Assembly: GCA_026625185.1 (NCBI GenBank)
Contig: CP113000.1
Location: 1,665,622 to 1,697,621 of the forward strand
Length of the DNA stretch: 32,000 nt
Reading direction: 5' to 3'
Origin: Thermodesulfobacteriota bacterium
GTDB lineage: Bacteria; Desulfobacterota; WTBG01; JAGOGO01
This document shows, piece after piece, positions 98 to 25,322 of the stretch. The translations under genes were made by a program, and so were the position numbers. How positions within the stretch are numbered: the first letter of the stretch is position 1; every line of letters starts with the position of its first letter. Below the pieces are notes generated by a model, which was given only the letters and a program-made list of their open reading frames with translations, searched no databases and was not told where the DNA came from.

Positions 98-3000
98 ATG
101 TCGAAGTTCTTCATCAACAGACCAATCGTGGCCATGGTCATTTCCATACTGATGGTCATCGTCGGCCTCGTCGCTGCTACGGGGCTCCCCATCGCTCAGT
201 TCCCGAACATTGTTCCTCCGGCGATCCAAGTAAACGCTACTTACACCGGGGCTGACGCCCTTACTGTTGAGCAGTCGGTTGCCACGCCCATCGAGCAGCA
301 GATGTCCGGGGTCGACAACCTGGACTACATGTACTCCATCAACACCAACAACGGGATGATGACCCTTTACAACTACTTCAACCTGAAAACCGAGGCCAAC
401 ACCGACCAGATTCTCTCCCAGATGCGGCAGAATCAGGCACAGTCGCAGCTTCCCAAGGATGTCGTTGATTATGGGGTGACGGTGCAGAAATCCACCTCGT
501 CGCCCCTCATCATGTTCGCCCTTTACTCCCCCAACGGGACCTACGATGCCGTCTTCCTCGCAAACTATTCCTACATCAACATCAACGACCAGATGACCCG
601 GATCAAGGGGATCGCCAGCGTCACGGTATACGGTGTCGGCCAATACGCCATGCGGCTCTGGGTCAAGCCGGACCAGCTCGCCAAGTTAAACATCACTATT
701 CCGGAGATCATGAACGCGGTCAAGGCCCAGAATACCGTCAACCCATCAGGCATGGTGGGCGCCGAGCCGGTACCGAAAGGCCAGGAGTTTACCTACTCCG
801 TTCGGTCCCAGGGAAGACTCCAGACCGAGGAGCAGTTCGGTGACATCGTGCTCCGTGCTAATCCCGACGGCTCCATTGTCAGGGTCAGGGACGTGGCGCG
901 CATCGCGCTGGGGTCCCAGACTTACAACGTGCAAAGTCGCTTCAACGGCAAGCCGTGCGCCCTCATCGCCCTCTTCCAGATGCCTGGAACCAACGCTCTG
1001 GATGCCGCCAACGGCACCAAAAAGCTGATGGAGGAGCTGAAGAAGAGCTTCCCGCCCGATCTAGACTATGAGGTAACGCTGGATACCACTTTGGCAGTTA
1101 CTGAAGGAATGCAGGAGATGAAAAAGACCTTTTTCGAGGCTCTCTTCCTCGTTGTTCTGGTCGTCTTCGTCTTCCTCCAGGGGTGGCGGGCGACCCTTAT
1201 TCCGCTCCTGGCAGTACCGGTCTCGTTGGTGGGGACCTTTGCGGTCTTTCCCCTCCTCGGCTTTTCGATCAATACGCTGTCCCTCTTCGGCCTTATCCTC
1301 GCTATTGGCCTGGTAGTGGACGATGCCATCGTCGTGGTTGAGGCCGTGGAGCACCACATTGAGCACGGCCTCTCGCCCAAGGATGCGGCACTCAAGGCCA
1401 TGGAGGAGGTCTCAGGCCCGGTCATCGCCATTGCCATTATTCTCGCGGCGGTCTTTGTCCCGACCGCCTTCATCCCCGGCATCACCGGCCAGCTTTACCA
1501 GCAGTTCGCGGTGACCATCGCTGTCTCGGTAATCCTCTCCGCTTTCAACGCCCTCTCCCTCTCCCCGGCGCTCTGCGCGCTGCTGCTGAAGCCCAAGAAG
1601 AAGGGTGCCGGTCCGCTCCAGAAGTTCTACGACTGGTTCAACCGGGTCTTCGGCCGGGCCACCGACGGCTACGTGGGAATCTGCGGCGTCGCCGTTCGGA
1701 AGAGTTTAATTAGCTTCCTCTTATTAGGGGGGGTCACGGTCCTGGCTGGGGTATCGGGCAAAGCCATCCCCACCAGCTTCCTCCCGGACGAGGACCAAGG
1801 GTTCATCTTTGCCGGCGTGCAGCTGCCCGACGCCGCCTCGCTCCAGCGGACCCGCGAGGTAGCCCGGCAGGCCGAAGAAATCATCATGAAGACCCCGGGC
1901 GTCAATTACTGCTCCTCGATTATCGGTTACAACATGCTCAGCCAGGTGCAGAACACTTATAGCGCTTTCTTCTTCATTTCCCTTGAGGAATGGTCCACTC
2001 GGAAGGAGCCGGAAGCGCAGTATGAGGCAATCAAGGCGTCGATCTCGAAGAGGATGGCCGGCATTCCCGGTGCCATCGGTTTCGCCTTCCCGCCGCCAGC
2101 AATCATGGGGGTTGGCACCTCGGGTGGGGTCACTTTTATCCTTCAGGACCGGGCCGGCAAGGACATCGGTTTTCTTGCCGAGAACACGCAAAAGTTCATC
2201 GAAGAGGCCAAAAAACGACCCGAGCTGGCGCGCGTCACCACCACCTTCCTCCCCACCGTGCCACAACTCTATGTGGATGTAGATCGGGACAAGGTGCTCA
2301 AGCAGGGGGTCAACATCTCAGATATGTATAAAGTCCTGCAATGCTTCATGGGGAGTGGCTTCATCAACTACTTTAACCGGTTCGGCCGCCAGTGGCAGGT
2401 ATTCCTACAGGCCGAGGGGGACTACCGGACCAACATTGAAAACATAGGCCAGTTCTACGTGCGCAACAGCGACGGGAAATCGGTTCCGCTCTCGGCACTC
2501 ACCTCGGTTCGCAACATCACCGGGCCGGAATTTACCATGCGCTACAATCTCTACCGTTCAGCCCAGATCAATGCCTCGGCGTCCCCGGGGTATAGTTCGG
2601 CACAGGCCATGCAGGCGCTCGAGGAGGTCTTCGCCCAGACCATGCCGCGCGAAATGGGGTACGACTATAGCGGCATGTCATTCCAGGAGAAGAAAGCCCA
2701 ACAGGGGGTCTCGCCGGCGGTGATCTTCGCCTTCTCGTTTCTCTGTGTCTTCTTGATCCTGGCGGCCCAGTACGAGAGCTGGTCGCTGCCGTTCTCGGTA
2801 CTTCTCGGAACACCCATTGCAGTGGCCGGGGCTTTCGGCGGACTTTTAATGCGACACTTTGAAAATAACGTCTATGCCCAGATCGGTCTGGTCATGCTGA
2901 TCGGCCTGGCGGCCAAGAACGCAATCCTGATCGTCGAGTTTGCCAAGATGGAGTATGAGAAGGGCAAGCCGCTGGTCGAAGCGACCCTTGAGGGGGCGCG

Positions 3001-3250
3001 GCTCCGGCTTCGGCCCATCCTGATGACCTCCTTCGCCTTTATCCTCGGCTGTGTGCCGCTGGCTATCGCCAGTGGGGCCGGTGCGATATCGCGCCAGGTC
3101 ATGGGCACGGCGGTCATCGGCGGCATGCTGGCGGCCTCCTTCATCGCCATCTTCCTCATACCGGTTACCTTTTATGTCGTGGAAAAAATCTCCCATCGAG
3201 GCACTCATTCGGATTCTTCAATGAACAAGGAGGATAAACCTCATGGGTAA
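98..3250 (+). CDS. RND (HAE1/AcrB-MexB type) inner-membrane multidrug efflux permease, 1050 aa
   Basis: N-terminus MSKFFINRPIVAMVISILMVIVGL is typical of this family, as are the length, the 12-TM pattern with two large periplasmic loops, and conserved VVDDAIVVVE and AKNAILIVEF motifs. GAGG lies upstream of the ATG. Confidence 0.95.
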   Translation: MSKFFINRPIVAMVISILMVIVGLVAATGLPIAQFPNIVPPAIQVNATYTGADALTVEQSVATPIEQQMSGVDNLDYMYSINTNNGMMTLYNYFNLKTEANTDQILSQMRQNQAQSQLPKDVVDYGVTVQKSTSSPLIMFALYSPNGTYDAVFLANYSYININDQMTRIKGIASVTVYGVGQYAMRLWVKPDQLAKLNITIPEIMNAVKAQNTVNPSGMVGAEPVPKGQEFTYSVRSQGRLQTEEQFGDIVLRANPDGSIVRVRDVARIALGSQTYNVQSRFNGKPCALIALFQMPGTNALDAANGTKKLMEELKKSFPPDLDYEVTLDTTLAVTEGMQEMKKTFFEALFLVVLVVFVFLQGWRATLIPLLAVPVSLVGTFAVFPLLGFSINTLSLFGLILAIGLVVDDAIVVVEAVEHHIEHGLSPKDAALKAMEEVSGPVIAIAIILAAVFVPTAFIPGITGQLYQQFAVTIAVSVILSAFNALSLSPALCALLLKPKKKGAGPLQKFYDWFNRVFGRATDGYVGICGVAVRKSLISFLLLGGVTVLAGVSGKAIPTSFLPDEDQGFIFAGVQLPDAASLQRTREVARQAEEIIMKTPGVNYCSSIIGYNMLSQVQNTYSAFFFISLEEWSTRKEPEAQYEAIKASISKRMAGIPGAIGFAFPPPAIMGVGTSGGVTFILQDRAGKDIGFLAENTQKFIEEAKKRPELARVTTTFLPTVPQLYVDVDRDKVLKQGVNISDMYKVLQCFMGSGFINYFNRFGRQWQVFLQAEGDYRTNIENIGQFYVRNSDGKSVPLSALTSVRNITGPEFTMRYNLYRSAQINASASPGYSSAQAMQALEEVFAQTMPREMGYDYSGMSFQEKKAQQGVSPAVIFAFSFLCVFLILAAQYESWSLPFSVLLGTPIAVAGAFGGLLMRHFENNVYAQIGLVMLIGLAAKNAILIVEFAKMEYEKGKPLVEATLEGARLRLRPILMTSFAFILGCVPLAIASGAGAISRQVMGTAVIGGMLAASFIAIFLIPVTFYVVEKISHRGTHSDSSMNKEDKPHG

Positions 3251-4745
3251 GCTTATTAATGAACAGATCTCCTTCACAATTGCACTTCTTATGTTTTTTA
3301 TGGTCGCTTGTGCTATTGGTCCTGATTACCAAAGGCCGAAGGTAGATATTTCGCAAGCCTGGCGTTTTGAGGAAAAAGAAGCTTTGGATGTTGCCAATAC
3401 TGCCTGGTGGGAGCAGTTCAATGACCCGGTTTTAAATGAATTGATTCAGATTGCCCTCAAAGAAAATAAAGACCTGATGGTTGCTTCAGCACGGATCGAG
3501 GAGTTTATCGGCCGCTACCGCACCACCCGCTCCTATTTGTTTCCCAAAATTAACGCCCAAGCAGTGGGGGGAAGATCCCGTGCAACCGAGGAAGGGCCTT
3601 CTCCGTTGTCACCGAGCATTGAAAATCCTTCTGACTTTTTTCAAGGGTTTTTCTTTGGAAGTTGGGAAATTGACCTCTGGGGAAAGCTGCGGCGGGCCAA
3701 GGAAGCAGCCCGGGCTGATTTGCTGGGCACCGAAGAAGGTCGGCGAGGAGTGATTTTAACTCTGGTGGCCGCGGTGGCCAATGGCTATATTAACCTGCGA
3801 GACTTAGACCGGGAGCTGGAGATTTCCAAGCGCACTGCCACGACCCGTGACGGAACCTATAAGATGTTTAAGCTTCGTTTCGAAGCCGGTGTCATTTCTG
3901 AGCTTGAGCTCAGCCAGGTAAAATCAGAATACGAGGCGGCCCTGGCCGCCATCCCGCAGTTTGAAAAGGCCATTGCCCAGCAGGAGAATGCCTTAAGCAT
4001 TTTACTCGGCCGTAATCCTGGGGTTATTACCCGGGGAAAGATGATTGATGAGTTAGCTCTGCCTGTAGTTCCCCAAGGGGTTCCTTCCGATGTGCTCGAC
4101 CGGCGGCCGGATATTCGGCAGGCGGAACAAGATCTCATTGCTGCCAATGCACGAATTGGTGTTGCTAAGGCAGCGTATTTCCCCAGCATCTCCCTGACGG
4201 GAGATTATGGTTATGCCAGTACGGAACTTTCAAATTTGTTTGATGGTCCGGCGAAGGCCTGGAGCTGGACTGCGCCCATTGTTGCTCCCATCTTTACTGC
4301 CGGACAAATTTCCGGCGAAGTAAAGGCAGCAAATGCTATGCAGCAACAGGCTCTTTTTCGTTACCAGCAGGTGATACAAAATGCTTTTCGCGAAGTGGAT
4401 GATTCGCTCATTGACCAAAACAAAACAAGGGAGCAACTTGGTGCTCAAGGAAGGCAAGTAGAGGCTTTGCGCCAATATGCTCGATTAGCGCGGCTGCGTT
4501 TTGATGAAGGGTATACTAGCTATATTGAGGTGCTTGATGCGGAGCGGAGCCTTTTTGATGTTGAGCTTTCCTATACTCAAACCCAGGCTACCGTGTTTCA
4601 GGCGCTCGTAAATCTTTACAAGTCAATGGGTGGTGGTTGGGTGAACGAGGCAGATAAGCTGACGATTGACATGTCTGGTACAGGGAAGCCGGCTCAGGAA
4701 ACTCTTTGGGAGCGGATGAAAGGGGCACTGCAACTCATAAATTAA
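3243..4745 (+). CDS. Outer-membrane efflux lipoprotein, NodT/OprM family (OMF), 500 aa
   Basis: The start overlaps the pump stop (ATGGGTAA), implying translational coupling. Signal peptide with lipobox FMVAC followed by GPDYQRP. Family motifs WWxxFxDPxLNxLI, RPDIRQAE and LYKSMGGGW are present. Confidence 0.9.
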   Translation: MGKLINEQISFTIALLMFFMVACAIGPDYQRPKVDISQAWRFEEKEALDVANTAWWEQFNDPVLNELIQIALKENKDLMVASARIEEFIGRYRTTRSYLFPKINAQAVGGRSRATEEGPSPLSPSIENPSDFFQGFFFGSWEIDLWGKLRRAKEAARADLLGTEEGRRGVILTLVAAVANGYINLRDLDRELEISKRTATTRDGTYKMFKLRFEAGVISELELSQVKSEYEAALAAIPQFEKAIAQQENALSILLGRNPGVITRGKMIDELALPVVPQGVPSDVLDRRPDIRQAEQDLIAANARIGVAKAAYFPSISLTGDYGYASTELSNLFDGPAKAWSWTAPIVAPIFTAGQISGEVKAANAMQQQALFRYQQVIQNAFREVDDSLIDQNKTREQLGAQGRQVEALRQYARLARLRFDEGYTSYIEVLDAERSLFDVELSYTQTQATVFQALVNLYKSMGGGWVNEADKLTIDMSGTGKPAQETLWERMKGALQLIN

Positions 4746-20525: not shown

Positions 20526-22478
20526 TTAAAAAGAGAGCTTTACTCCTCCAAACGCGGAAATTCCCGCGGTATCGTAACCTTTTATTTCCTGATAGTGCTC
20601 GTTGAAAAGGTTTTCAATCCTCGAGAACAATTGAAAATGCTCATTGATGGTATAAGTCCCCGCAAGATCAACCCGGGTATAGGATTTTACCATTTCATTT
20701 TCGGGCCACCAGTAATTCAGCCGTCGTCCAATGTGATTCGCACTGAGCGTTGTCTGAAATTTTTTAAAAACATAATTGACCGACATACCGGCTTTGTTTT
20801 TCGGGCGGTTCAGCAACTGTCCACCATTTGTTTTATCTCTGGTTTCGGTGCGGGTATAGTTGGCAGAGATAGTGAGATTTTCTAAAGGATTAACAGCAAC
20901 TTCAACTTCGTACCCTTTTGCTTTAGCTTTGTTTAGGTTTATATACGTACTGGTATAGTCAGGATAGGTGTAATAGGTTATGTAGTCTTCATAATCATTA
21001 TGAAAATAAACAAAACTAAAACGGCATCGTTCATCAAACAACGTTTGTTCTATGCCCACATCAAAGCTTTTACTTTCTTCAGGGTTGAGATTTGGGTTTC
21101 CCCCTAAAAACCCATAATCTACGATGGCCGGGGCATACAGCTGATAGAGGGTCGGAGCCTTGAAGCCGGTGCCCCAGGTTCCTTTAAATTTAGTGCCGGT
21201 TTGGTGGACAAGATACGCCAAAGCAACTTTATAGGTGGTTTCGGTCCCGAACATCTCGTGGTCATCAACGCGGACACCTCCGGTTAAAAAAAGCTGGTCG
21301 AACAGCTTGAGCTGGTTCTGAAAATACCAGGCTTTGTTGTCAATTGTTTTTTTGGGAAACACGGACACTCCCCAGTTGTCAGCATAAAATGATTCTCCGG
21401 TCTCTTCCTTGTATTCAAACCCCGCGGTGATCACGTCAAAATCGCCGAGATACCAGTTGTTCTGCCATTCACCTTTAATGTTTGACGCGTCATACCAGCC
21501 TTTGGCTGAATAGAAGGGTTCATGGTCGTCCGGTTTATCCCGGTCATCCCGCTGAATGGTGTAGTAACCGAACTTCAGAATAGAGTCCCAGTAATCGGTA
21601 ATTTGTTGATTGTAACGGGCAAGATAAAGCTGAGAGTTGGTCTCTTCAGTATAGTTGGGATCATTGACCGTGCTGAGCGTATAATTAAAGAAATCATAAT
21701 TCCAATCGTCCAGATGCACCTTGGCGTCCTCCGAGCGGAAAACAAAATCAAGATTTCCTTTTTCGAACACCTGATAGCCCAGCCGTCCTGAGAACGCATT
21801 GTTTTCATAATTGTCATCCGCGCTAATCCCATTGCTGTCAACGCGTGCGCCGGAAAAGGAATAATCCCACTTTCCGATTTTGCCGTCTCCGCTTAAAATC
21901 TCCCGGAACGTTTCATCCGAGCCCCCTTCGGTGAGGAGAGAAAATTTGGGTTTGCCGGCGCCTTTTTTGGTGATGATATTGACCACCCCGCCGATCGCGT
22001 CAGAACCGTAGAGGGTGGATTGGGGCCCGCGGACAACCTCGATGCGGTCGATATTATCAGTCAACAGATCGGAAAAATTAAAAGCGCGGCCGGGACTGAT
22101 GGGGTCGTTTATTTCCATGCCGTCCATCATGACCAGGGTATCTTCCGAACGGCCTCCCCGGATAAAGACCGCTGTTTTTCTCCCCAGACCTCCTTCGCTG
22201 GAGACAGTCAGTCCGGGGACTTCCTGGAGGGCCTGTTTTACGGTCATGTTTTTGGCGTTATCCATATCCTCCGCCGTGACGACACTGACCGAGCTGGCGG
22301 TCTCTTCGATGCTTTGTTCCGTTTTGGTGGCGGTCACTACAATCGGTTTAAGGGTAACTTTTTTCGCTTGCTCTTCGGTTTGGTTTTCTTCTTCGGCTGC
22401 AAAACCAGCCGAAGAGAAAATCAGCGAGGTTAAGGAGACCACAAATAAACTTTTCATTAGATTCATGCTCGACTTCAT
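20526..22478 (-). CDS. btuB: TonB-dependent outer-membrane receptor, BtuB-like (cobalamin/corrinoid uptake), 650 aa
   Basis: Signal peptide, TonB box (KPIVVTATK), plug motifs ([27 protein letters not shown]) and a C-terminal beta-barrel ending in ..GGVKLSF. Preceded by a cobalamin riboswitch. GAGGG SD upstream of ATG 22478. Confidence 0.9.
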   Translation of the reverse strand: [650 protein letters not shown]

Positions 22479-22619: not shown

Positions 22620-22675
22620 GCACCCAGCTTGCTTCACCCTTTATCCGCGAAAGTGGCAAAAGTTATGTTTCTTAA

Positions 22676-22875
22676 GAGGCAGGTCTTCTGACTTTCTCGC
22701 GCCTTGAACTAACCTTCCCATTCCGATAAATCGGAGCAGTGGTTATGTCCGCAAAAAAAATTTTTGCGTAAGTTAAAGGCATTTACCTTACTTTTTTTGT
22801 AAGGTGCGGGATTACAGCGGCGGGACCGTTCCCGATTTTAACGGGATTCCCTTTTAAACCCCTTAGGGGTGCCTC
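22676..22875 (-). promoter_or_regulatory. Cobalamin (B12) riboswitch aptamer
   Basis: The minus strand reads AGAGGCACCCCUAAGGGGUUUAAAAGGGAAUCCCGUUAAAAUCGGGAACGGUCCCGCCGCUGUAA ... CCACUG...GGGAAGG ... then the B12 box AGUCAGAAGACCUGCC (22678-22693). P1 AGAGGCA/UGCCUCU closes the aptamer. Confidence 0.9.
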
Positions 22876-22892
22876 TTTTAATTTATTTTTTA

Positions 22893-22922
22893 ATAATAAG
22901 ATCATCCCACCAAATTTGTCAA
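22893..22922 (-). promoter_or_regulatory. Candidate promoter of the riboswitch-btuB transcript (TTGACA, 18 nt spacer, TATTAT)
   Basis: On the minus strand, TTGACA (22922-22917) and TATTAT (22898-22893) lie just upstream of the riboswitch 5' end. The -35 lies at the proposed IS boundary. Confidence 0.45.
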
Positions 22923-22924
22923 TG

Positions 22925-22964
22925 AAAAATTTTGGTGATTATCTATTTGACAAAGGTAAATGAG
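22925..22964. repeat. Left terminal inverted repeat of the IS1595-like element
   Basis: AAAATTTTGGTGATTATCTATTTGACAAAGGTAAAT matches the reverse complement of 25071-25110 (AAAATTTTGGTGATTATTTACTTGACAAAGGGTAAAT). There are 2 mismatches and 1 indel over about 37 nt. Confidence 0.85.
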
Positions 22965-22981
22965 ATTGATAATATGAAAAA

Positions 22982-23767
22982 ATGCAAATTAAAACAAGGA
23001 AAAGAAAACAATCTAAAAAAGTTGCGGGGGGGATTATTTTAACATTGGGTATCCCCATTGCATTTTATCAAGAGTATTTTAAGTATAATCCATATCTGCT
23101 TCCAATTATAGGTTTTGTAGCTATACTGTTTTATTTATGGGCCTTCATAACTTGGGATAAATTTTATAAATGGGAATGGTATTTTTATTCGAGGAGCAAA
23201 ATGATAAGTCTTGTAATTTTTATAGTCATTGGGTCGTGTGTGGGGGCTATGCTTGGGGCTGCCGAATGGTTTGCTATCCATAAAAGCAAAGAACACGTCT
23301 TGTCTTTAAAACCAGAAAAATCGCCACCAAAACAACTCACCCCAGAAGAAATAAAAGAAATAGCAAAGAAAGCTGCAAAAGATGAAGTCCTTAACATCAG
23401 TAAAATCCAACAAAATGAACTTACTAAAGAGTTTCCAGAAGGATTTGTTACTTTTGGAATTATAAAATCAGGAGAACCTTTAATTCCTGGTTTTGTCCCT
23501 GAGGGTGTTACAGTAAATTGGAACACTGGGGGAACTAGAAGTGTAACCCAAACGATGGTGTTGATTGAATTACCCGATATGACCATTAAACGAGGAGGTG
23601 GTACTATCAATTTCATCCACAACAGTGCCACCCTGCCACGAAAAACAGGATATATTGAGCGGGGTTTTGGTATGGAAGATTTACTCCTTCAGATTAAAGT
23701 TCTAAATGCCACCGAACCCGTCATTATTGCATTGGGGTTTGTGAAAGAAAAACAAAAAGAAAGATAA
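22982..23767 (+). CDS. Hypothetical membrane protein (passenger gene of the IS element), 261 aa
   Basis: Lys/Arg-rich N-terminus, three hydrophobic helices, then a soluble C-terminal domain of about 150 aa. No family recognised and no SD. The ATG sits about 7 nt after a TAATAT -10 box, which suggests a leaderless mRNA. Confidence 0.55.
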   Translation: MQIKTRKRKQSKKVAGGIILTLGIPIAFYQEYFKYNPYLLPIIGFVAILFYLWAFITWDKFYKWEWYFYSRSKMISLVIFIVIGSCVGAMLGAAEWFAIHKSKEHVLSLKPEKSPPKQLTPEEIKEIAKKAAKDEVLNISKIQQNELTKEFPEGFVTFGIIKSGEPLIPGFVPEGVTVNWNTGGTRSVTQTMVLIELPDMTIKRGGGTINFIHNSATLPRKTGYIERGFGMEDLLLQIKVLNATEPVIIALGFVKEKQKER

Positions 23768-23792
23768 ATGATGGAAAACCATATACTTAAAG

Positions 23793-23865
23793 TGCCCCCG
23801 CTGAGCCTCGAACTCAGAGCAACTAATTTAGCAGATTAGTTTCTTTCCAGTTGATTTACGGGGGC
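23793..23865 (-). ncRNA. tRNA-like cloverleaf (degenerate tRNA, anticodon-position GCU) inside the IS element
   Basis: The minus strand folds as a 7-bp acceptor stem GCCCCCG/CGGGGGC with A73. The 19-nt D region carries U8, A14, G18G19 and A21 but has no D-stem. The anticodon stem is CUAAU/AUUAG (extendable to 7 bp) with loop CUGCUAA (U33, A37). There is a 5-nt variable loop and a T-arm CUGAG-UUCGAGG-CUCAG. No CCA is encoded. Confidence 0.35.
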
Positions 23866-23867
23866 AC

Positions 23868-23916
23868 AAAACAAAAGGCGAGGCTTGCGACCAACCATAA
23901 AATCACTTACCTCGCC
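23868..23916 (-). terminator. Likely intrinsic terminator of the transposase transcript
   Basis: On the minus strand, GGCGAGG [26-nt loop] CCUCGCC is followed by UUUUGUUUU. It lies about 80 nt downstream of the transposase stop and ends 2 nt before the tRNA-like element. Confidence 0.5.
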
Positions 23917-23995
23917 TCGTTGTCTGAGTTCTCAACTCAACTAATCTGCTAAAAAAATAAAATATTCTTTTAAAATATAAAAATCAAGATATTTT

Positions 23996-24889
23996 TTAGG
24001 CAGATTTCCCAACAAGTTCCTTAAATTCCATTTTAGGAGCATTAAGCAGTTTTATAATAGTATCTCTAAATAAATATGGGTTCTCTCTATTGTTAAACCT
24101 CCATTCAAATTCATCAAGGTAAGCGTCCATGTGTTTTGCGCTGATTTGATGGTAAGACCCAATAATAGACCTTTTAAACAAAGACCAAGCGTTTTCAACC
24201 CCATTATTATGAATATTACCTCTTACCCATTCTTCCATACTATGATTAACTTTTTCATGGTTAAAGGTATTAATAAGGGATTTATAGGCTGGGAGTTCGT
24301 CAGTCATTACATTAGAACCTTTAGCGACTCTATCATTTACAATTCCAATAAGTATTTTTTTGCTCGCAGTTCTAATTTTTCTTGCCTCAAAGTTACCACC
24401 CCTTTTCAAAATTCCGATAACTGGTTGTTTTTCATATTTCTCTCTTTTTCTTCGGGGATCATATTTGCCGCCTACATAGGTTTCATCTACTTCAACTATT
24501 CCGTCAAGTTTGGGTTTGTTGGGTATTTCCTCGATAGCCTTTCTTATTCTGTGGCAAAGATACCAGGCGGTTTTATAGGCTATTTTAAGAGTTCTTTTAA
24601 GTTGAAGGGCAGATATGCCTTTTTTTGATTCAACCATGAGATATACAGCTATTAACCATTTCCAAAGCGGTAAATGAGAATCGTGAAAGATAGTTCCAGC
24701 AGTTACGGAGAATTGATAGCGACAGGAATCACACTCAAACTTTTTTTCTTTATATAGGTGAGAGATTTTATCAGAACCACAACGAGGGCATTTAACCCCC
24801 TCGGGCCATTTAAGGGATTCAAAGTATTTGCGACATTTATCGTCATCACCCTTGTATTTAGCAACAAGGTCAATTAAGTTATCTTCCAT
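23996..24889 (-). CDS. IS1595-family transposase (N-terminal zinc ribbon plus ISXO2-like DDE domain), 297 aa
   Basis: WPEGVKCPRCGS..FECDSCRYQFSVTAGTIFHDSHLPLWKWLIAVYL, then IVEVDETYVGGK, MTDELPAYKSL, HEKVNHS and NGVENAWSLFKR.. HMDAYLDEFEWRFNNR. ATG 24889 with GAGGTG 4 nt upstream is preferred over the TTG at 24901. Confidence 0.9.
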   Translation of the reverse strand: MEDNLIDLVAKYKGDDDKCRKYFESLKWPEGVKCPRCGSDKISHLYKEKKFECDSCRYQFSVTAGTIFHDSHLPLWKWLIAVYLMVESKKGISALQLKRTLKIAYKTAWYLCHRIRKAIEEIPNKPKLDGIVEVDETYVGGKYDPRRKREKYEKQPVIGILKRGGNFEARKIRTASKKILIGIVNDRVAKGSNVMTDELPAYKSLINTFNHEKVNHSMEEWVRGNIHNNGVENAWSLFKRSIIGSYHQISAKHMDAYLDEFEWRFNNRENPYLFRDTIIKLLNAPKMEFKELVGKSA

Positions 24890-25070
24890 AGGACACCTCA
24901 ATGAAAAAGAAGAAAAAACACCCTAAAGATATGAAAGCAAATGAAGTAATGGAACATGTTTTCCACCCCAAGGTTGCCAAACACCTGAGAAAACACGTTG
25001 AAAAGCTGTCTAAAGAAAAAGAAAAGTCTAAATAATTAATTAATTCCTTCATATATCCCACCTTACTCCC

Positions 25071-25110
25071 CTATTTACCCTTTGTCAAGTAAATAATCAC
25101 CAAAATTTTA
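25071..25110. repeat. Right terminal inverted repeat of the IS1595-like element
   Basis: Reverse complement of the left IR (see 22925-22964). On the minus strand it contains an inward-facing TTGACA (25088-25083) that could serve as the -35 of the transposase promoter. Confidence 0.85.
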
Positions 25111-25322
25111 AAATCTACCAAATTTTTTTATAATCATTTTGAAGTATTACAAATGGCCAGGATTATCTGGCTTCCTCCGACAAAGGGGGTCATTTGAGAC
25201 CAACCTAACGATCGGTTATAAAATTCATGAACTTTATTATGGTGATTTGGTCGATAAAATCGATTTGATTTTTAAAGATTTGAAAGATGTTGAATGGAAA
25301 ATAAATACTTCTTGATTTTTTT

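Follow-up and report, generated by a model that had tools for sequence, protein, structure and literature searches.

A tRNA-like sequence between the two genes of an insertion sequence

What is a sequence with the shape of a transfer RNA (tRNA) doing between the transposase and the passenger gene of a bacterial insertion sequence (IS)? The question arises from a 32,000-nt stretch of DNA, here called the window, from an uncultured, sulfate-reducer-type Thermodesulfobacteriota bacterium (assembly GCA_026625185.1, contig CP113000.1, positions 1,665,622 to 1,697,621 of the forward strand). The window contains an IS1595-family element, on the minus strand of which a first-pass annotation, made from the sequence alone, had pointed out a cloverleaf. 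Three explanations had been offered for it: a decayed tRNA captured by the element, a tRNA mimic carried as cargo, and an RNA switch. We favor, with modest confidence, a stranded gene derived from a tRNA-Arg(YCU) that lies in a lineage-specific insert, where the working part is probably a terminator between the two convergent genes. The features on which this account turns are the following (window positions).

23793-23865, minus strand: tRNA-derived sequence with a class I body, anticodon GCU, a weakened D-stem, and no CCA (ARAGORN, RF00005, and comparison with Escherichia coli argU and argQ)
23768-23995: spacer of 228 bp between the convergent passenger and transposase genes, not present in any related element examined
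22918-25117: complete IS1595-family element (inverted repeats, target duplication, and transposase domains)

Detection and anatomy of the tRNA-like sequence

With default settings, ARAGORN called a tRNA-Ser(gct) at 23792-23865 on the minus strand, the sole tRNA in the 32-kb window. The Rfam tRNA model RF00005 matched 23793-23865 on the same strand over its full length (model positions 1 to 71 of 71) with 41.2 bits (E = 2e-7; 501 nt searched), against a gathering score of 29 bits. For scale, a bona fide tRNA-Arg(CCG) from a related metagenome-assembled genome (MAG) scored 68.6 bits under identical conditions, which puts the tRNA-like sequence 27 bits lower. RF00005 was the only significant Rfam family in 23600-24100, where no T-box was found and all other hits lay far below their gathering scores. 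When folded, the 74-nt tRNA-like RNA outdid 200 of 200 shuffled sequences (z = -3.2), and the 221-nt region that surrounds it gave z = -4.85. The tRNA-shaped fold drawn in the first-pass annotation is thus borne out by both programs, with a covariance-model score well above the threshold and not in the noise, where that annotation had said a spurious fold would fall. Given the 41 bits against RF00005, we take it as beyond reasonable doubt that the sequence is tRNA derived and not a chance set of hairpins. A gathering-mode Rfam scan of the whole window did not report the sequence despite its 41.2 bits, because of speed filters and not because of a low score; such filters can hide atypical tRNAs.

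Most of the anatomy described in the first-pass annotation was seen again. The acceptor stem (GCCCCCG/CGGGGGC) forms seven of seven pairs, and two further pairs, of U(-1) and G(-2) with A73 and C74, lengthen the acceptor helix to 9 bp. The anticodon stem (CUAAU/AUUAG) forms five of five pairs around the loop CUGCUAA, the variable loop (UUGCU) has 5 nt, and the stem of the T-arm (CUGAG-UUCGAGG-CUCAG) is again fully paired (5/5). A73 is followed by CUUU, so that no CCA is encoded. The D-stem, on the other hand, had been described as unable to pair except at U12-G23, an overstatement that arose because the register was shifted. In the register of real tRNA-Arg D-arms, the D-arm AAUC-AACUGGAAA-GAAA (in DNA, AATC-AACTGGAAA-GAAA) keeps the inner pairs U12-A23 and C13-G22; the outer pairs, 10-25 and 11-24, are both A·A, and position 26 is absent. 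The 3- to 4-bp D-stem of RF00005 (G10, Y11-R24, and C25) is not formed; the other three helices are perfect.

The cmscan alignment and a split into domains showed the tertiary core to be complete and in register. Positions 8 and 9 are U8 and A9, and the expected partners are found at U8-A14-A21, at A15-U48, at G18 and G19 opposite U55 and C56, and at U54-A58. In addition, A9 lies over U12-A23 and G46 over C13-G22, G53-C61 is paired, and U33 is present. In its predicted structure, the molecule is far from a ruin: the L-shape is nearly intact, and the D-stem is loosened.

An arginine-type body with a serine anticodon

ARAGORN assigned the sequence to serine because of its GCU anticodon. In bacteria, however, it is the long variable arm, and not the anticodon, that confers serine identity, this class II arm being the main determinant for seryl-tRNA synthetase, together with G73 (PMC9976931). 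Since the variable loop has 5 nt and position 73 is A, the sequence, as judged from these identity elements, is not a serine tRNA, despite the tRNA-Ser(GCU) call. This agrees with the earlier remark that a GCU anticodon on a body with a short variable arm is unlike the class II tRNA-Ser of bacteria.

The arginine identity set consists of A20, C35, U or G at position 36, and A or G at position 73 (PMC9976931), and it is complete here (A20, C35, U36, and A73). The anticodon itself is not one of the arginine anticodons (NCG or YCU), and GCU, which reads the serine AGY codons, is at odds with the arginine-type body. The anticodon loop CUGCUAA differs from that of E. coli argU (anticodon UCU; CUUCUAA) at position 34 only. 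The D-arm shares 11 of 17 positions with that of E. coli argQ (GCTC-AGCTGGATA-GAGT), and at each of the other six it has an A where argQ has another base. We infer an arginine-tRNA ancestry from these identity positions, because overall identity fails to discriminate between isotypes.

Codon usage fits such an ancestry. The three open reading frames (ORFs) of the element (window 22982-25035) use AGA or AGG for 21 of 28 arginine codons (75%), compared with 62 of 382 (16%) in 14 host ORFs of the window (P = 1e-10 by Fisher's test), and the share of AGY among serine codons is the same in element and host ORFs. A tRNA-Arg(YCU) would make sense as cargo of this element, while an AGY reader would not; we regard the bias as a supporting coincidence.

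Distribution among related elements

We compared the element with 50 GTDB loci from Nitrospirota, "delta proteobacteria," Acidobacteriota, and others, whose transposases are full-length matches of 33 to 74% identity. At none of the 50 was a tRNA found downstream of the transposase, and blastn of the element against these loci gave no similarity in the spacer. The loci of eight further relatives had no tRNA either. Relaxed and mitochondrial ARAGORN settings produced scattered false positives on the related loci but nothing consistent, and neither the window, searched with filters off, nor the 58 loci yielded another copy with a single-sequence covariance model of the tRNA-like sequence. The closest transposases in the protein collection are 84%, 80%, and 75% identical, that of 80% being the closest for which DNA was available; the spacer is absent from its locus and from two loci at 75%.

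The relatives for which both inverted repeats were located measure 1.8 to 2.5 kb and have a single convergent passenger ORF that adjoins the transposase stop or overlaps it. Even in the only close relative of the passenger protein, the gap between passenger and transposase is 52 bp, the maximum seen among the relatives. Because about 60 relatives have neither the spacer nor a tRNA, the 228-bp spacer is, by this comparison, a lineage-specific insertion into a compact two-gene arrangement. The first-pass annotation had held that a lack of conservation among other copies would speak against its proposal; conservation is indeed lacking, in the sense that no other copy exists in the data searched. 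No homologue in which covariation of the helices could be sought was found in the 58 loci, the window, the metagenome and viral scans, or the phage and plasmid records, and the five assemblies that contain the element (see below) are identical.

Two observations were made on the related elements themselves. They follow a common plan of a small lysine-rich divergent ORF, a transposase, and a convergent passenger ORF touching its stop (loci L001-L050, L056, L057, and L070-L073). One related copy (L005, 4971-7206) has a 3.2-kb cargo region with two extra ORFs (243 and 504 aa) that look like a nested insertion.

A predicted terminator and the expression context

The spacer also contains a second, longer structure directly in front of the tRNA-like sequence.

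23866-23923, minus strand: intrinsic-terminator-like hairpin, with stem GGCGAGG (23916-23910)/CCUCGCC (23883-23877) (from folding)

Read on the minus strand, the transposase stop (23996) is followed by an AT-rich tract, a 15-mer (23953-23939) and a T-arm-like hairpin (both described below), this long hairpin, UUUUGUUUUGU, and G1 of the tRNA-like sequence. The hairpin has a free energy of -29.3 kcal/mol and is also part of the minimum free energy (MFE) structure of the 221-nt region. An A-rich tract precedes it, and UUUUGUUUUGU (23876-23866) comes after the terminator stem. The U-run, UUUUGUUUU, ends 2 nt before G1 when read from the sequence, which agrees with the distance given in the first-pass annotation. 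A simple hairpin scan had not listed the structure because the scan was limited to loops of 8 nt and the loop is longer. A stable GC-rich hairpin directly followed by a U-run on the transcribed strand is the arrangement of an intrinsic terminator, and the hairpin at 23866-23923 with its U-run is predicted to terminate the transposase transcript.

No sigma-70-like site was found between the transposase gene and the tRNA-like sequence. Having no promoter-like site of its own and a predicted terminator in front, the tRNA-like sequence would be made only by read-through. On the plus strand it lies antisense in the 3' region of the passenger gene, 25 nt past the stop codon.

An inverted copy of the anticodon arm

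Between the transposase gene and the terminator, two short features resemble parts of the tRNA-like sequence.

23939-23953, plus strand: inverted copy of the 5' strand and loop of the anticodon arm, AACTAATCTGCTAAA, the exact reverse complement of 23827-23841
23924-23940, plus strand: small T-arm-like hairpin, CTGAG-TTCTCAA-CTCAA against CTGAG-TTCGAGG-CTCAG, 12 of 17 positions identical (read from the sequence)

The 15-mer TTTAGCAGATTAGTT (23827-23841) corresponds to tRNA positions 25 to 39, that is, to the 5' strand of the anticodon stem and the loop. Both features had been reported in the first-pass annotation, and both were recovered. The inverted repeat is exact and nonrandom, none of 100 shuffles having given two matches, and a local alignment possibly extends it by TCAACT after a 6-nt gap. 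A longer palindrome, reaching beyond the 15-mer and the terminator stem, was not significant (84 of 1,000 shuffles were as good). The simplest reading of the 15-mer is that it represents a partial, scrambled inverted duplication of the tRNA-like sequence. Two other identities were tried and rejected: a miniature inverted-repeat transposable element with 15-bp terminal repeats inserted into a tRNA, for which there is no target duplication and whose repeat would cut through the anticodon hairpin, and an attC-like site, the core motif of which is in the wrong orientation.

Origin and present role of the insert

In the account that we favor, an IS1595-family element would have acquired a 228-bp stretch between its convergent transposase and passenger genes. 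The hairpin and U-run would be the part most likely to be active, stopping transposase transcription 2 nt before the tRNA-like sequence and so separating two converging transcription units. The tRNA-like sequence would then be a stranded relic, silent or nearly so. We infer that it has no present function because it has no promoter-like site of its own, would be reached only by read-through, has lost the two outer pairs of its D-stem, and has an anticodon that misfits its body. Of the three options offered at first, the decayed captured tRNA gains from the tRNA homology and uniqueness of the sequence, the missing promoter-like site, the adjoining predicted terminator, and the anticodon mismatch, and the switch loses ground, with an ensemble probability of about 3% and no comparative support.

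Several observations weigh against a relic. Damage is seen only at two neighboring D-stem pairs and the wobble base, while 19 of 21 pairs and every loop and core position are intact. Watson-Crick pairs make up the whole of the acceptor, anticodon, and T stems (17/17), and the anticodon loop (C32, U33, A37, and A38) and the T-loop are canonical. Such selective decay is odd because neutral decay would be expected in the other stems too; it would mean that the capture was very recent or that selection still acts on the fold, and the exact 15-nt inverted copy likewise suggests recency or constraint. The arginine origin is not seen in overall identity, which was not discriminating among 18 class I tRNAs (17 from phage T5 and the tRNA-Arg(CCG) of the related MAG): the best match was a tRNA-Glu (40/73), and the T5 tRNA-Arg matched at 33 of 71 positions.

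Nor was a parent tRNA found in metagenome, viral, or phage and plasmid scans or in the flanks. The metagenome scan, done with the 20-mer GTTCGAGGCTCAGCGGGGGC, gave seven chance hits in high-GC DNA and did not recover the element's own locus, so that its null result says little, because the host is evidently outside that collection. A viral pattern scan for the tRNA-like sequence gave nothing, blastn against phage and plasmid records showed no usable similarity, and the host contig has no further tRNA within 10 kb beyond the window on each side.

The intact fold could alternatively belong to a functional RNA that does not decode, a reading that we consider unlikely. Ribonuclease P (RNase P) would cut read-through transcripts at G1 (23865), and their 3' side would be trimmed, which would define or stabilize the 3' end of the transposase mRNA or release a tRNA-shaped decoy or cofactor RNA. 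The perfect acceptor and T arms and the canonical core are consistent with this, as the minihelix recognized by processing enzymes is intact, and so are the fold statistics (z = -3.2 for the 74 nt and -4.85 for the 221-nt region) and the position directly downstream of the transposase on the same strand. The annotation of phage T5, moreover, lists several "tRNA-like stable RNAs with unknown functions," and mobile genomes thus keep such RNAs. Related elements, however, manage without the sequence, a strong predicted terminator stands in front of it, the pairing of U(-1) and G(-2) with A73 and C74 is unfavorable for RNase P, and the passenger protein shows no link to tRNA biology.

An RNA switch appears improbable. 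In read-through transcripts, the 15-mer at 23953-23939 would pair with the anticodon arm at 23841-23827, forming a helix of 15 bp around the terminator hairpin and opening the cloverleaf, so that the RNA would toggle between a tRNA-shaped and an extended form. The complement is exact over 15 nt and nonrandom, and forcing the helix in a 211-nt minus-strand RNA costs just 1.4 kcal/mol over the MFE (-66.5 versus -67.9 kcal/mol), but its ensemble probability is about 3%. With the terminator lying between the two arms, most transcripts would never hold both. No ligand or partner is apparent, the spacer has no Rfam match besides the tRNA, the example is single and without comparative support, and a partial inverted duplication accounts for the repeat without any function.

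That the element carries the sequence as cargo that is active in decoding is, in our view, very improbable. Such a tRNA would be charged by arginyl-tRNA synthetase (ArgRS) through A20, C35, U36, and A73 and read AGC and AGU, inserting arginine at serine codons; alternatively, it would be charged in another way and supplement AGY decoding. The complete arginine identity set, a U36-A37-A38 context of the kind usual in tRNAs for ANN codons, and the intact stems and core all speak for a decoder. Mistranslation of serine codons as arginine should, however, be harmful, and the genes of the element show no excess of AGY codons. Two pairs are all that is left of the D-stem; position 26, a promoter-like site, and the CCA are all missing; a bona fide tRNA scores 27 bits more against RF00005; and there is no counterpart in relatives. 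Very doubtful, too, is a working cargo that would combine these ideas, namely, an ArgRS-chargeable tRNA with an AGY anticodon, or a tRNA-shaped regulator, made on terminator read-through, with its anticodon arm masked in cis by the 15-mer.

Finally, that the terminators of two convergent genes resemble a cloverleaf by chance can be dismissed: the region does lie between convergent genes and has a terminator-like hairpin, but the full-length RF00005 match (41.2 bits; E = 2e-7), the default ARAGORN call, and a T-loop, D-loop GG, U8, U33, and tertiary partners that are all in register refute it.

Relation to known systems

In form, the putative relic resembles tRNA-Arg(UCU/CCU), such as E. coli argU, in its acceptor, anticodon, and T stems of 7, 5, and 5 bp, its 5-nt variable loop, its A73, C35, and U36, and its 9-nt D-loop with A14, G18, G19, A20, and A21. 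Unlike argU, it has G34 and with it a serine anticodon, its pairs 10-25 and 11-24 are A·A, the stretch between the D and anticodon stems is shorter by one nucleotide, and neither a CCA nor a promoter-like site is present; it also lies inside an IS and scores 41 bits compared with 69.

With RNA1, RNA2, and RNA3 of phage T5, which are annotated as tRNA-like and of unknown function, it shares a tRNA-shaped sequence on a mobile element. The T5 RNAs, in contrast, belong to a large expressed tRNA cluster with promoters, while the present sequence stands alone, behind a predicted terminator, in an IS of 2.2 kb. In 3'-end modules of the MALAT1-mascRNA type and in bacterial mRNAs cleaved by RNase P, a tRNA-shaped element lies directly downstream of a transcription unit on the same strand. 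The arrangement is similar here, but in contrast to both, a predicted intrinsic terminator precedes the tRNA-like sequence.

Metazoan mitochondrial tRNA-Ser(GCU) is a D-armless tRNA (PMC9976931). It has in common with the sequence studied here the GCU anticodon, a short variable region, and a defective D-arm, but the present context is bacterial, the D-loop G18-G19 and two D-stem pairs are present, and the T-loop is a canonical one. The likeness is best regarded as a coincidence, with no sign of common descent.

As an IS, the element resembles other IS1595-family elements with passenger genes, having a DDE_Tnp_IS1595 transposase with a zinc ribbon, terminal inverted repeats, an 8-bp duplication, and one passenger ORF. 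Among the roughly 60 IS1595 relatives examined, no other has an RNA gene or a spacer between transposase and passenger. Transfer RNA pseudogenes and tRNA-like RNAs on mobile genomes are already known. Literature searches brought up no account of an IS1595-family element that contains a tRNA or tRNA-like sequence, which agrees with the remark in the first-pass annotation that no described element of this kind was known to its author.

If the sequence is a relic, insertion sequences of this clade can pick up noncoding host DNA, including a tRNA gene, between their two genes. The codon bias suggests a rationale: a tRNA-Arg(YCU) would benefit an element rich in AGA and AGG in a host that avoids these codons. 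Should selection still maintain the fold, the element would be unusual among insertion sequences in carrying a structured RNA, and were the sequence working cargo, no RNA gene, and no potentially mistranslating tRNA, would have been known in an insertion sequence before it. Either way, annotators should not take the tRNA-Ser(GCU) called in this genome for a serine tRNA. As a single instance, the locus is of modest interest unless expression or charging is shown.

The host element and its genes

The genes carried by the element are given below.

23996-24901, minus strand: transposase of the IS1595 family, a 301-aa ORF (297 aa in public assemblies) (Pfam)
22982-23767, plus strand: passenger gene of 261 aa, with N-terminal transmembrane helices and a C-terminal all-beta domain (ORF)
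24901-25035, plus strand: small lysine-rich ORF of 44 aa, divergent from the transposase gene; ORFs of 44 to 49 aa occupy the same position in relatives

An 8-bp target duplication, CCAAATTT, read directly from the sequence, flanks the element at 22910-22917 and 25118-25125, and inverted repeats of 31 nt (22926-22956 and 25079-25109) are 94% complementary. The transposase matches the Pfam families PF12762 (DDE_Tnp_IS1595; 1.1e-39) and PF12760 (IS1595 zinc ribbon, N terminal; 4e-13), and its homologues number in the thousands. With the transposase domain and zinc ribbon, the terminal inverted repeats, and the 8-bp duplication all present, the element is an intact, single-copy IS1595-family insertion sequence. 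The Pfam matches, inverted repeats, and target duplication likewise confirm the placement of the tRNA-like sequence in the first-pass annotation, inside an IS1595 element and between passenger and transposase. The nucleotide similarity to relatives runs across the small lysine-rich ORF. An element 100% identical to this one occupies the same chromosomal site in five assemblies of one Thermodesulfobacteriota population. Its G+C content is 35.5%, compared with 48% for the window, which fits a foreign origin.

The passenger protein had no family match in Pfam, PADLOC, or PHROGs. In an exhaustive HMMER search it proved to be modular, the N-terminal transmembrane module and the C-terminal domain recurring separately in more than 100 proteins. 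Its AlphaFold2 model is confident (predicted local distance difference test score, 87.9; above 95 for the C-terminal all-beta domain), and a Foldseek search of this model against the PDB gave nothing better than an E value of 0.03. None of these searches (Pfam, PADLOC, PHROGs, and Foldseek) linked the protein to tRNA biology, and no tRNA-like sequence adjoins the genes of its relatives. The passengers of related IS1595 elements are extremely diverse membrane proteins. The closest relative of the C-terminal domain (protein P0123 at locus L074) has no adjoining transposase and is flanked by genes for a HigB-like toxin and a SocA/Panacea-domain protein (243-524 and 2824-3273), a neighborhood of the toxin-antitoxin or defense type.

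The insertion point of the IS lies 27 nt upstream of a cobalamin riboswitch (22661-22891, minus strand; 83 bits), which precedes a gene for a TonB-dependent receptor (20526-22478, minus strand). At 22893-22922 on the minus strand, TTGACA from the end of the IS and TATTAT from the flanking DNA stand 18 nt apart, match sigma-70 hexamers at 11 of 12 positions, and point into the riboswitch; they could be a hybrid promoter created by the insertion.

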